This document shows, piece after piece, positions 32,803-36,740 of a DNA stretch of 64,000 nt. A program made the position numbers and the translations under genes. Within the stretch, counting starts at the first letter, position 1. Every line of letters begins with the position of its first letter. Origin of the DNA: Treponema sp. GTDB taxonomy: Bacteria > Spirochaetota > Spirochaetia > Treponematales > Breznakiellaceae. The notes below the pieces were generated by a model. That model did not search any database, was not told the origin of the DNA, and saw only the letters and a program-made list of their open reading frames with translations. The DNA lies in assembly GCA_031265845.1 (NCBI GenBank), contig JAISCC010000016.1, positions 2,763 through 66,762 of the forward strand, given 5' to 3'.

Positions 32803-34581
32803 ATGAAAAAGAGCGTGGCGTTTGTTTTGATGATGGTGGCGGCGTTGGGAGTGGCGGGCGCGGCGTATGGGCAGAAGAAGGAGAGCCTTGCGGTTCTTCC
32901 GTTTACCGGCGTGCAGACGAGCGATGGGGAAACCATTGCGCGGGCGTTTGCGCGGGCGCCGGTTTGGCGGGATGCGTTCAATGGGGTGATGTCCATAACG
33001 CGGGCGACGCAGGAGTTCATACAGTTTGAACAGCGGTTTCAACGAATGTCCGGGTTGACTGACGCGGACACGATCTTCGAGTTGGGGAAGCAGTTGAACG
33101 CATCGCACGTGATGACAGGGTATACGACGAAGTTCGGAAACAGGAATCTGGCGCTGGTGAGCATACTTGACGTTGAAAGCCTGCAACTGATAGCTGGAGA
33201 ATACCGGGTGTATACGAAGATAGAAGAGGTGGCGGACATGATACCTGACATGGCGCGGAACATGGCGCGTGCAGTGGGGCGGGACACGAGCAAACTGCCC
33301 GGGCTGTCCGTGCCGCCGTTCAGCAGGGAAAACGGGATAAACGAGAGCGACGCGCAGACGCTGGCGCAGATATTGGCGATAGGGCTGGCGAATGGGAACA
33401 AGTACGCGGTGCTGCCGAGGACAGACAGTCTGGAGAAGGTGCGAGAGGAGCATAGCAGGCAGAGGAGCGGGCAGACGGATCAAGAGCGGGTGAAGCGGCT
33501 GGGGGTCGGAAGGAACGCGGAGTATGTGCTTGTCAGTTCGGTGGGTACCTGGGGGAGTCTGCTGTCTTTTGATGCAGACGTGCATAATATAGAGAGTATG
33601 ATATTGAGAGAAGGGTTTGCGGAGCGGTACAAGGACTTTTCGGAAGGTTTGGAACTGATACCCAGACTCGCGGCAAGGCTGAACGGGGAGACGATCACGG
33701 CTGCACCGGCGGCTCCCGCGCCCGCGCAGGCGGCTCCGGCGCAGAAGCCCATGCCGGCGAACATGGTGAGGATAGGTGGCGGGACGTTCACGATGGGAAG
33801 TCCCACGACGGAGGCGAGTAGGGGGAGCGATGAATCGCCGCAACATCAAGTGACGATAAGCAAGCCGTTCTACATCGGGAAGTATGAGGTGACGCAGAAG
33901 GAATGGACTGAGGTGATGGGCACAACGATACACCAACAGCGGGCTCTTGCGGGTTATAGCGGCGATTCGACATACGGGGTGGGGGACAATTACCCGATGT
34001 ATTATGTGAGCTGGTACGACGCGGTGGAGTACTGCAACAAGCGGAGCGCAAAGGAAGGGCTGGCGCCGGCGTATACGATAGACAAGACGCGGAGCGACGG
34101 GAACAACGGCAATGGGGGCGACAACGTGAAGTGGGTGGTGACGAGGAATGTGAACGCGACCGGGTATCGCCTGCCGACGGAGGCGGAGTGGGAGCTCGCG
34201 TGCCGGGCGGGGACGAGCGCGCCGTTTTACACGGGGAACAACATAACGACGAACCATGCGAACTACAATGGGAATTACCCATACAACAACAACGCGAAAG
34301 GAGAGTACCGTCAGAGGACATGGGCAGTGGGGAGCGGGACGCCGAATCCGTGGGGGCTGTACGACATGAGCGGGAACGTGTGGGAGTGGTGTTGGGACTG
34401 GTATGGGAGTTATAGCAGTGGGTCTCAGACAGACCCTTCGGGCGCCGCCGCTGGCTCTGACCGCGTGGAACGCGGCGGGTCGTGGAACGACGATGCGCAG
34501 AACGCGCGTTCTGCCTACCGGGGCAGCGACACCCCATCGGGCAGGAGCGTCAACCTTGGCTTCCGGCTGGTTCGCCCCTAG
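32803..34581 (+). CDS. Secreted protein: two LpoB-like domains + C-terminal FGE-sulfatase (SUMF1) / C-type-lectin-fold domain (paralog P1)
   Basis: Signal peptide, then [14 protein letters not shown]...[16 protein letters not shown]...[20 protein letters not shown]...RGGSW...GFRLVRP. Confidence 0.8.
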   Translation: [592 protein letters not shown]

Positions 34582-34718
34582 TTCCGCTGGCGTCAGCAGT
34601 GGTGGCGGGGATGGAGAGGGCGGCGGTGTGGGCGGCGGTCAACGCCGCCTTGCCGCCGACCGCGTAGTCCCCGCTTTTGCGCGGGTCTGGTTGTCGCGCC
34701 CGTTTGTCCGTCTGCGGG

Positions 34719-34934
34719 GGTGTCGGGGGGCAAGCCCCCCGACACGCGCTGAGCGCCGGCCCGGTGTCAGACATCGGGTCGCGGCGTATGTGTGCGGTGT
34801 CAGACATCGGCACGGCGCGGTGGGGAATGGCTCGCCCGCGCTGTGAAAGACACTGGCACGGCGCGGTGGTGTCAGACACACGACGGGCGGATACGGGGCG
34901 GCGAGCAGGGCGGTGGGCGGCGGTGTCAGACACC
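34719..34934. repeat. Cluster of five REP-like palindromes between P1 and P2
   Basis: GTGTCGGGGGGC-aa-GCCCCCCGACAC (34719-34744); GGTGTCAGACATC at 34763 and 34796; GGTGTCAGACACA at 34868; GGTGTCAGACACC at 34922. GGCACGGCGCGGTGG occurs twice. Confidence 0.75.
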
Positions 34935-35042
34935 GAAGGTATCAATGGTACAATAACCAAAACAGGAGATACCTATGAAAATGATTAGTGCGGCGCTGAC
35001 GCGTATCGCGCTCGCCGCGCGTATGGGCGGGAGCCCGCGAAC

Positions 35043-35816
35043 ATGGTGAGGATAGCGGGCGGGACGTTCACGATGGGAAGCCCCTCGACGGAGGTTGGCA
35101 GGGGAAGCGATGAGACGCAACACAGCGTAACGATAAGCAAGCCGTTCTATATCGGGAAGTATGAGGTGACGCAGAAGGAATGGTATGACGTGATGGGGAG
35201 CAATCCGAGTTATTTCAAAGGGGACAATCTGCCTGTGGAGCAAGTGAGTTGGTACGACGTGATAGAGTACTGCAACAAGCGGAGCGAGAGGGAATGGCTG
35301 ACTCCCGCGTACACGATAGACAAGACGCGGAGCGATGGGAACAACACAAACGGAAGGGATAACGTGAAGTGGGTGGTGACGTGGGATCGGAACGCGAACG
35401 GGTACCGGCTGCCGACCGAAGCGGAGTGGGAGCTTGCGTGCCGCGCCGGTACGAGTACGCCGTTTTACACGGGGAGCGACATAACGACGAACCATGCGAA
35501 CTACAACGGAAACTATCCATATAATAACAACGCGAAAGGAGAGTATCGGGGTAAGACATGGGCAGTAGGGAGTGGGACGCCGAATCCGTGGGGGCTGTAC
35601 GACATGAGTGGGAACGTGTATGAGTGGTGCTGGGACTGGTATGGGGCGTATAGCGGGACGCAGACAGACCCTGCGGGCGTGGCTGGCGGCTCCTACCGCG
35701 TGGTACGCGGTGGGTCGTGGTGCAATTACGCGCAGTATGTACGTTCCGCCTACCGGTTCAGCGACGCCCCGTCGAGCAGGTACGGCACCTTTGGCTTCCG
35801 GCTGGTGCGCCCCTAG
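35043..35816 (+). CDS. FGE-sulfatase / C-type-lectin-fold protein (paralog P2), signal peptide out of frame
   Basis: The domain is intact from [14 protein letters not shown] to GFRLVRP. RBS + ATG at 34975 encodes MKMISAALTRIALAA... in another frame and stops at 35047-35049. Confidence 0.65.
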   Translation: [257 protein letters not shown]

Positions 35817-35885
35817 TTCTGCTGGTGTCAGGCACGCGGCGGCGTATGATCGCTCATTATAAAGAAAGGCAAAAGGAGAAGCGGA

Positions 35886-36740
35886 ATGAAACGCACCGTA
35901 GGATTGATAATGGCAATGGGGTCGCTGGAGACGGCGTATGGGCAGGATACCATACCCGCGAACATGGTGAGGATAGCGGGCGGGACGTTCACGATGGGAA
36001 GCCCCTCGACGGAGGTTGACAGGCATGACAGAGAAACACAGCATCAGGTGACGATAAGCAAGCCGTTCTCCATCGGGAAGTACGAGGTGACGCAGAAGGA
36101 ATGGGGAGAAGTGATGGGGAGTAATCCGAGCAGGTTCAAAGGAGACAATCTGCCTGTGGAGCAAGTGAGTTGGTACGACGTGATAGAGTACTGCAACAAG
36201 CGGAGCGAGAAGGAGAAGCTGACGCCGGCGTATGCGATAGACAAGACGCGGAGCGATGAGAACAACAGAAACAGATGGGATACCGTGAAGTGGATAGTGA
36301 CGTGGAACCGGAACGCGAATGGGTACCGCCTGCCGACCGAAGCGGAATGGGAGCTTGCGTGTCGGGCGGGGACGAGTACGCCGTTTTACACGGGGAGCGA
36401 CATAACGACGAGCCATGCGAACTACGATGGAAATTATCCGTACAACAACAACGCGAAAGGGGTGTATCGAGAGAAGACGTGGGAAGTGGGGAGCGGGACG
36501 CCGAATCCCTGGGGGCTGTACGACATGAGTGGGAACGTGTGTGAGTGGTGTTGGGACTGGGATGGGGCGTATAGTGGAGGGGCACAGACAGACCCTGCTG
36601 GCGCGGCTGGCGACCTTTTCCGCGTGAATCGCGGCGGGTCGTGGAACTATGACGCGCAGGACATCCGTTCCGTCTGCCGGGGCGGCAACACCCCGTCGAG
36701 CAGGTACGACGACATTGGCTTCCGGCTGGTTCGCCCCTAA
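35886..36740 (+). CDS. FGE-sulfatase / C-type-lectin-fold protein (paralog P3)
   Basis: Short N-terminal leader [20 protein letters not shown], then the same domain ending GFRLVRP. Confidence 0.75.
   Translation: [284 protein letters not shown]

Follow-up and report, generated by a model that had tools for sequence, protein, structure and literature searches.

The closest described relatives of the genes analysed here are target proteins of diversity-generating retroelements (DGRs) in treponemes. The DGR of Treponema denticola is credited with seven remote targets of the formylglycine-generating enzyme (FGE) type (PMC5758913), and T. denticola strains without the reverse transcriptase (RT) and the template repeat (TR) keep remnant targets (PMC4891356, Nimkulrat et al. 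2016). Cassettes containing HRDC have been named the "Treponema architecture", and HRDC/Avd cassettes with FGE targets "architecture C", with targets of category b (Wu et al. 2018, PMC5758913). The same study described tandem multi-target DGR arrays, for example in Stenotrophomonas sp., with eight tandem targets (Wu et al. 2018, PMC5758913). In this work we analysed a 64-kb stretch of chromosome from a metagenome-assembled genome (MAG) of Treponema sp., hereafter the window, which carries three FGE paralogs, P1, P2 and P3, all on the plus strand. The 3' ends of these genes display a codon signature of the kind expected from a DGR, no DGR core was found near them, and their variable regions differ from each other at sites where targets of one template should agree. 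Altogether, P1-P3 are probably orphaned, or fossil, DGR targets.

The genes of the array, with one gene remnant and the neighbouring upstream gene, are the following.

P1: 32803-34581, plus strand, open reading frame (ORF) of 592 aa, MDR1218294.1
P2: 35043-35816, plus strand, ORF of 257 aa, FGE/C-type-lectin domain alone, MDR1218295.1
P3: 35886-36740, plus strand, 284 aa, signal peptide and FGE/C-type-lectin domain, MDR1218296.1
P2 start and signal-peptide remnant: 34976-35042, plus strand, ATG at 34976, MKMISAALTRIALAA…
CsgG/LpoB-like secreted protein upstream of P1: 31864-32733, plus strand, MDR1218293.1, annotated "CsgG/HfaB family"

Comparison of P1-P3 with TvpA and other systems

An earlier note on this DNA had described P1-P3 as tandem TvpA-like FGE/C-type-lectin genes. 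Indeed, the best match in the PDB is TvpA (2Y3C; Le Coq and Ghosh 2011), the DGR variable protein of T. denticola, at E 2e-33; true FGEs reach only about 1e-17. The C-terminal variable block aligns onto the TvpA variable region. The coordinates of the three ORFs, their shared FGE domain and their GFRLVRP ends are all as the note gave them, according to the ORF list and the PF03781 matches. PF03781 is matched end to end in the three proteins (E 2e-57 over residues 319-591 of P1, 1e-55 in P2 and 1e-52 in P3), and all three terminate in GFRLVRP. In P1, a signal peptide precedes an LpoB/CsgG-like N-terminal region (PF13036 LpoB, E 5e-6), which is followed by the C-terminal FGE-sulfatase/C-type-lectin domain.

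P1-P3 share with TvpA and the other T. denticola targets the genus, the FGE-type fold, a C-terminal variable region that aligns residue for residue and a variability of the AAC-codon type. The T. denticola targets also lie far from the RT and exist as remnants without RT and TR. P1-P3 differ from them by having no known cognate TR or RT and by their drift at non-adenine sites. Moreover, P1-P3 are arranged in tandem whereas the T. denticola targets are scattered, and the LpoB/CsgG-like extension of P1 has no counterpart in TvpA. The note had also referred to TvpA as a lipoprotein, and on this point the likeness does not hold. TvpA is a predicted lipoprotein, whereas the signal peptides found here have no lipobox cysteine; none is present in P1, P2 or P3, and the N-termini of P1 and P3 contain no cysteine (signal peptides and lipoboxes were called by eye from the sequence). 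P1 and P3 are predicted to be exported. The signal-peptide remnant of P2, located by alignment with the in-frame homologues P3 and L003 (a related contig), sits +2 out of frame relative to the P2 body as the result of a frameshift. P2 probably represents either a pseudogene or a copy that is not exported.

Formylglycine-generating enzymes (SUMF1/FGE, PvdO, EgtB family) resemble P1-P3 in carrying PF03781 over their whole length, but they match this family far worse than TvpA does, and the C-terminal segment of P1-P3 is hypervariable. Judging from these comparisons, an enzymatic role of P1-P3 is unlikely. Tandem arrays of the Stenotrophomonas type have in common with P1-P3 several target paralogs placed head to tail on one strand. 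In those arrays, however, the variable regions match an adjacent TR with A-to-N changes only, whereas P1-P3 have no TR and are inconsistent with each other at non-adenine sites. P1-P3 behave as members of a DGR target family, from which they descend, but in the DNA searched they show nothing of what characterizes a live target, namely a cognate TR, consistency at non-adenine sites and an RT.

Codon signature of the variable regions

The variable regions (VRs) were delimited by codon alignment, with boundaries taken from real TR/VR pairs.

P1 variable region: 34453-34578, plus strand, hypervariable codons up to 34557
P2 variable region: 35688-35813, plus strand, hypervariable codons up to 35792
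P3 variable region: 36612-36737, plus strand, hypervariable codons up to 36716

In the genuine TR/VR pairs of two metagenomic cassettes described below (L007 and L009), homology starts at GGCTC(T/G)AACCG, about 20 codons past GNVxEWCWDW. Therefore the starts of the variable regions were placed at about 34453, 35688 and 36612. The W/Y/C codon and its neighbours belong to the scaffold, outside the template-homologous segment. The earlier note had counted variability from GNV(W/Y/C)EWCWDW onwards; the template-homologous region is shorter than that and begins some 20 codons later. Its other readings of the alignment were accurate: the 56-nt stretch quoted as part of a long P2/P3 scaffold run is identical in the two genes, and the codon triplets and coordinates given for the last block are correct.

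The note had also attributed the variable codons to adenine-specific mutagenesis of AAC/AAT template codons. This was assayed on a codon alignment of the three domains, in which the C-terminal block (codons 228-265, the last ~40 codons) was compared with the scaffold. Of the nonsynonymously varying codons, 60 of 66 in the block have C or T as their last base (C in 49), versus 66 of 162 in the scaffold, where codons strongly favour G at the last position. Restricting the count to four-fold families (Gly, Ala, Thr, Val and Pro) takes out the effect of amino-acid composition. Such codons finish with C or T in 19/24 cases in the block and in 33/236 in the scaffold, a difference with Fisher p = 5e-11. 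Every codon observed at the 12 positions where AAY is predicted (36/36) is NNY. These counts agree with the proposed signature. The accompanying statement that the third base is kept was only partly upheld: it is unchanged at 10/10 codons of the last block, but over the whole block the difference from the scaffold is weak (14/22 versus 21/54, p = 0.075). The signature is real, and it is carried by which third base is present (C or T) more than by its constancy. The variable regions of P1-P3 thus appear to have been written by a DGR, with retrohoming itself read from the codon scar.

It is very unlikely that the family has no DGR history at all and that it arose by duplication and diversifying selection on ligand-binding residues, with C/T endings supplied by composition or codon bias. 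Such bias does not explain the excess of Y endings within four-fold families. Moreover, the variable codons correspond to the AAC codons of independent real templates, the residues encoded by the constant codons are those of the same templates, and TvpA, the nearest relative by structure, is a DGR variable protein. What speaks for this explanation is that paralog binding surfaces often show clustered nonsynonymous change, that Y-ending codons are the only ones available for many of the favoured residues (Asn, Asp, Tyr, Ser, Phe, Cys), and that the test on unchanged third positions is weak.

Reconstruction of the template and search for real templates

The template was deduced from 10 aligned variable regions, those of P1-P3 and seven found on related contigs (L002-L006). 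The same codons vary throughout this alignment. Between them, the constant codons read GGG TCG TGG … GCG CAG … CGT TCC … CGG … CCN TCG … AGG … TTGGCTTCCGG, and the predicted template DNA is GGCTCNAACCGNGTNAAYCGCGGCGGNTCGTGGAACAACAAYGCNCAGAACGTCCGNTCCGCCAACCGNAACAACAACACNCCGTCGAACAGGAACAACAACATTGGCTTCCGG, with AAC/AAT codons at the variable positions.

Three collections of contigs were scanned for this template: viral contigs, genomes (185,579 species-representative genomes) and metagenomes (JGI). The window's own contig is absent from the genome collection, so that the scans there covered other genomes and not the remainder of this one. A first template-specific pattern, built from three sequences, gave no match. 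Its fault was over-specification, since NGC/GAC had been assumed at codons that the seven further variable regions show to be AAC. We then used an adenine-free pattern, which every cognate template must match. It had no viral match and three matches in the 185,579 genomes, all of them variable regions, and not TRs, in MAGs labelled Treponema/Spirochaetales; none of these three related MAGs contained a TR fitting the pattern. In a relaxed pattern, adenines were imposed at 10 hypervariable positions. Again no viral match was obtained, and five sites were retrieved in the JGI metagenomes, all of which are genuine TRs beside DGR RTs. None of the five is a cognate TR for P1-P3, from which they are separated by 18-31 non-adenine differences.

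The contig L007 (Ga0163209_1014651) holds a complete 2.8-kb cassette, composed of an FGE target, HRDC, an Avd-like gene, an RT of 336 aa and a TR. Its TR and VR differ by 22 mismatches at template adenines and by a single non-adenine mismatch in the repeat core; the other five non-adenine mismatches and three gaps are found at the edges of the local alignment. The L007 TR encodes the template predicted from the variable regions of the P family, with the predicted residue at 11/11 codons that the search pattern had left free. This match independently confirms that the tails of P1-P3 follow the layout of a canonical FGE-type DGR template. L007 differs from the array by its compactness, since target, HRDC, Avd, RT and TR all lie within 2.8 kb whereas the window has none of the core parts. 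Its TR also differs from P1-P3 at 18-31 non-adenine DNA sites, and its RT groups with non-spirochaetal RTs. When all columns are considered, the variable columns of the P family coincide with the adenines of the five independent TRs (odds ratio 10, p = 2.5e-5).

Another cassette, L009 (Ga0099364_10080120, 436-3605), is Treponema-like and comprises an FGE lipoprotein target, HRDC, RT and TR. Its RT ORF is only 145 aa long, and nine non-adenine mismatches and a 3-nt indel separate its TR from its VR; by these signs the L009 cassette is itself decayed. The 64 database relatives of this RT are all ≤254 aa, many of them on short contigs, and may be either a genuine clade of short RTs or recurrently truncated or decayed copies. 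Protein searches with the partial L009 RT and with the L007 RT gave no Treponema NCBI entries among the matches listed, a result that is uninformative for this MAG.

Search for a DGR core near the array

The window contains no copy of the template other than the three variable regions, as judged by repeat search, blastn (word size 7) and nhmmer. A hidden template within the window was rejected on this basis. No YxDD motif of RTs occurs in its six frames, and none of its 36 ORFs has a Pfam match to RVT (PF00078), Avd (PF05635-like) or HRDC. RT, TR and accessory genes are likewise missing from the 4 kb past the right end of the window, and the neighbouring HU-DNA_bdg/DUF4469 gene is not among the known accessory genes of DGRs. 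The earlier note had remarked that the window holds neither RT nor template repeat, and both points are borne out; the alignment of the C-terminal segments that it proposed, when run on window DNA, returned only the three copies and no template repeat. Its suggestion of a multi-target array served by one DGR found no backing, either from RT, TR or accessory genes in the window and the following 4 kb or from a cognate TR in the contig collections.

Drift of the variable regions

Retrohoming overwrites the whole variable region. Therefore targets of one template must agree at non-adenine sites. P1-P3 do not display this mutual consistency. In pairwise comparisons, their variable regions differ at 48-60% of the predicted adenine sites, at 5-12% of all non-adenine sites (5-11/93) and at 12-26% of non-adenine third positions, and silent third positions in the scaffold differ by 18-21%. 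As drift at non-adenine sites is about equal to silent drift in the scaffold, the variable regions have not been homogenised by a shared template since the paralogs split. The caveat in the earlier note that one shared template cannot account for the differences is thus given numbers: non-adenine differences are as frequent as silent ones in the scaffold.

The 3' ends of the genes provide further signs of ageing. The tail of the P1 variable region includes a conserved GGCTTCCGGCTGGTTCGCCCC, which resembles an initiation of mutagenic homing (IMH) site. The GC-rich GGCTTCCGGCTGGTKCGCCCCTAGTTCYGC end is kept in P1, P2 and related MAGs and is lost past the P3 stop. The motif TAGTTCYGC after the stop codon, common to P1, P2 and relatives, is also lost in P3. 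One hairpin was detected.

GC-rich stem-loop: 34605-34675, plus strand, 24 nt past the P1 stop

The DNA fold of 34560-34700 reaches -42 kcal/mol (z = -3.9). No equivalent hairpin follows P2 (z = +2.0) or P3 (z = -0.5), so that only the one at P1 is significant; it could be a DGR target-site hairpin, or a plain terminator or repeat. Ageing is thus seen in the lost export signal of P2, in the lost post-stop motif of P3 and in a hairpin restricted to P1.

Active or retired targets

The earlier note had called the paralogs current or former DGR targets. The DGR signature agrees with the second half of this statement, and current activity finds no such agreement in the missing RT, TR and accessory genes, the lack of a cognate TR and the frameshift in P2. 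In our reading, P1-P3 are probably retired targets that a DGR no longer rewrites.

Several points weigh against this reading. Neither a cognate TR nor a cognate RT was found, so that retrohoming is deduced from the scar. The term fossil is based on three sequences and small counts (5-11 non-adenine differences per pair), and several diverged TRs could also generate non-adenine differences between active targets. In the comparison with real templates, excluding the columns imposed by the search pattern leaves 7/11 adenine columns variable versus 10/32 others, which is suggestive (p = 0.08). Finally, MAGs often miss repeat-bearing cassettes, and the part of this genome that was searched consists of the window and 4 kb, which leaves room for an active remote DGR.

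In such a case, one or several DGRs elsewhere in the genome, maybe with diverged templates, would still rewrite at least one of the three variable regions. Treponema targets more than 100 kb away from their RT are documented, and adenine-site divergence in P1-P3 is near saturation. The GC-rich tail, GFRLVRP and TAGTTCYGC are kept in P1, P2 and related MAGs as an IMH-like end would be, and a strong hairpin stands 3' of P1. We nevertheless consider an active remote array rather unlikely. Retrohoming from one TR would erase the non-adenine differences between P1-P3, which resemble those of the neutral scaffold. Template-specific patterns uncovered no cognate TR in genome, metagenome or viral contigs, and the relaxed pattern recovered the TRs of other lineages; the three related MAGs also have no TR fitting the adenine-free pattern. 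Moreover, P2 is frameshifted, and P3 has neither the post-stop motif nor the hairpin. Retirement of the array is thus the reading that we retain.

Relatives of the array and recombination

The family is large: at E ≤ 1e-20 it counts more than 7,900 homologues. In relatives too (contigs L001, L003 and L012), arrays are found that have no RT next to them, with the same conserved scaffold and hypervariable NNY tail. The related loci contain up to three FGE paralogs per array, and these show non-adenine differences. In eight related loci, retrieved through FGE genes and variable regions, no RT is present in the sequence around the genes. No strain-level variants of P1-P3 were found in the protein collection, where each of their clusters comprises at most two proteins; the one that clusters with P2 is just 84% identical.

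Two relatives are damaged in their variable region. In L003 (5685-5925, protein P0006), an internal duplication of ~39 nt is present (…RDGSWYDVSNLVLPDGSWYDGAQ…). In L012 (5054-6946, protein P0121), a frameshift inside the variable region lengthens the ORF to 630 aa. Both could be aberrant products of retrohoming or the result of simple decay.

P2 and the L002 gene, which is located on another contig, are 96-100% identical over ~140 nt before and into the variable region, and 75-93% identical elsewhere. Such a tract amid lower identity indicates that exchange occurs. Partial 3' retrohoming was considered as the origin of this mosaic and is not favoured, since non-adenine differences also rise past the breakpoint. 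This rise points to recombination or to different templates.

The mosaic similarity among family members, of which the P2/L002 tract is an example, might also evoke cassette-style antigenic variation, in which segments are exchanged through gene conversion between expressed and silent copies, the way spirochaete vlsE/tprK systems work. P2, which has no in-frame export signal, would be a silent donor, and the tandem arrangement would fit. However, gene conversion leaves both the NNY scar and the register with DGR templates unexplained. The three variable regions of the window share no converted tracts, adenine sites differing by 48-60% in every pair, and no sign of a dedicated expression site was seen. 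We therefore regard this mechanism as extremely improbable for the array.

Proposed history of the array

The following scheme would account for these data. P1-P3 are tandem paralogs of the Treponema TvpA family, presumably exported and built on the FGE-type C-type-lectin fold. The last ~125 nt of each gene, the DGR variable region, presumably encode the ligand-binding surface that this fold displays. In mutagenic retrohoming, the DGR RT would have copied the TR while misreading its adenines, and the cDNA would have replaced the variable region. The template would have had AAC/AAT codons at the variable positions, as the register with real templates suggests. The DGR core (RT, HRDC/Avd and TR) is absent from the 64-kb window. 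After the last rewriting, the variable regions have drifted at non-adenine sites like the silent sites of the scaffold, and the export signal of P2 has been lost. The array may now evolve by ordinary mutation and recombination, with at best one copy still served by a DGR from elsewhere.

REP-like palindromes around the array

Short palindromes resembling repetitive extragenic palindromic (REP) elements are dispersed in the window and are found between and behind the FGE genes.

REP-like palindromes, 4 copies of GGTGTCAGACA(C/T): 34763-34934, no strand assigned, filling the P1-P2 spacer
GGTGTCAGACAC loci: 8535-8547, 9078-9089, 34763-34934 (x4), 35824-35835, 36813-36824, 38167-38179, 42983-42995 and 43133-43144

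The 460-nt spacer between P1 and P2 was considered as a degenerate TR or DGR RNA and rejected, as it is made of these REP-like GGTGTCAGACAC palindromes. The 12-nt palindrome GGTGTCAGACAC is found at 11 intergenic loci, with 16 strand-matches against 0.17 expected in the window, and 6/11 loci lie around P1-P3. Two copies bracket an ORF of the IS200/Y1_Tnp family (8614-9123, plus strand; PF01797, E 1e-12). Taken together, the palindromes and this ORF resemble a family of REP elements and the RAYT-type transposase that belongs to it.

About 70 nt found 3' of P3 (36794-36863), including a REP palindrome, are 84% identical to positions 1904-1974 of L006, a contig from a different Treponema MAG (Gx485_bin84), where the matching sequence likewise adjoins an FGE gene. 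The match shows that a non-coding element next to these genes has been conserved. Further downstream, two 85-nt direct repeats (38058-38142 and 38182-38266, 92% identical) flank a REP palindrome directly upstream of an ORF similar to peptidyl-prolyl isomerases (38258-39346).

Genomic context and other features of the window

The array and its neighbours correspond to NCBI MDR1218293-MDR1218297, on a contig of 74.6 kb, and the Logan assembly of run SRR14710922 contains contigs 100% identical to the window. By Pfam, the surrounding genes (SbcCD, FlaA, a PEP-mutase cluster, UxuA and others) are those of an ordinary spirochaete chromosome. An ABC transporter is located at the left edge of the window, and the 4 kb past its right end encode the housekeeping genes dxr, cdsA, uppS, frr and tsf. 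Exact look-ups of this transporter protein and of P1 and P3 gave no record. The FGE block (32000-38000) is unlike the flanking chromosome, with a G+C content of 0.58-0.62 versus about 0.50-0.53 and a GC skew of +0.12 to +0.27; both values result from the preference for G-ending codons.

The CsgG/LpoB-like gene upstream of P1 (PF03783, E 7e-8; PF13036, E 4e-4) is related to the N-terminal region of P1 and is probably part of the same cluster of envelope-protein genes. About 300 nt upstream of it, a minus-strand gene (30675-31571) encodes a PD-(D/E)XK "Transposase_31" protein (YhgA/Rpn-like), the C-terminus of which carries a EGREEGREEGREEG repeat. This protein may be a nuclease that promotes recombination, encoded next to a family of recombining genes. 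On the other side of the array, ORF 37071-37811 (plus strand) combines an HU-type DNA-binding domain with DUF4469 (PF14848, E 9e-23; PF14734, E 1.5e-22). Starting 3 nt past its stop, five tandem 23-nt units with the palindrome CCCAC(A/C)TGTGGGG occupy 37814-37928 and may be a binding-site array.

Two surface-protein genes of the window also contain in-frame tandem repeats, both on the minus strand: 57-nt units at 22072-22337 in a LysM gene (21869-22939), and 66-nt units at 44180-45162 in a BspA-type leucine-rich repeat/Big_3 gene (43975-45864). Finally, the minus-strand segment 11920-16225 clusters a phosphoenolpyruvate (PEP) mutase, an enzyme similar to thiamine pyrophosphate-dependent decarboxylases and an aminotransferase/nucleotidyltransferase fusion. 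It looks like a cluster for phosphonate decoration, for example with 2-aminoethylphosphonate.

Significance

The codon scar of a DGR can be recognised, and statistically tested, in a fragment that does not contain the retroelement. Reconstructing a template from paralogs was accurate enough to retrieve real templates elsewhere. Moreover, comparing non-adenine drift in variable regions with silent drift in the scaffold gives a simple clock for whether targets are still being rewritten.

A broader, speculative idea, which we hold to be quite unlikely, is that tandem FGE/C-type-lectin families of gut treponemes persist after loss of the DGR and keep diversifying by recombination between copies, of which the P2/L002 mosaic would be a sign. 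They would then form a standing, DGR-independent repertoire in which copies such as P2 act as silent donors. The array reveals no new mechanism, and it adds one MAG to the known picture of scattered and remnant FGE-type DGR targets in Treponema.

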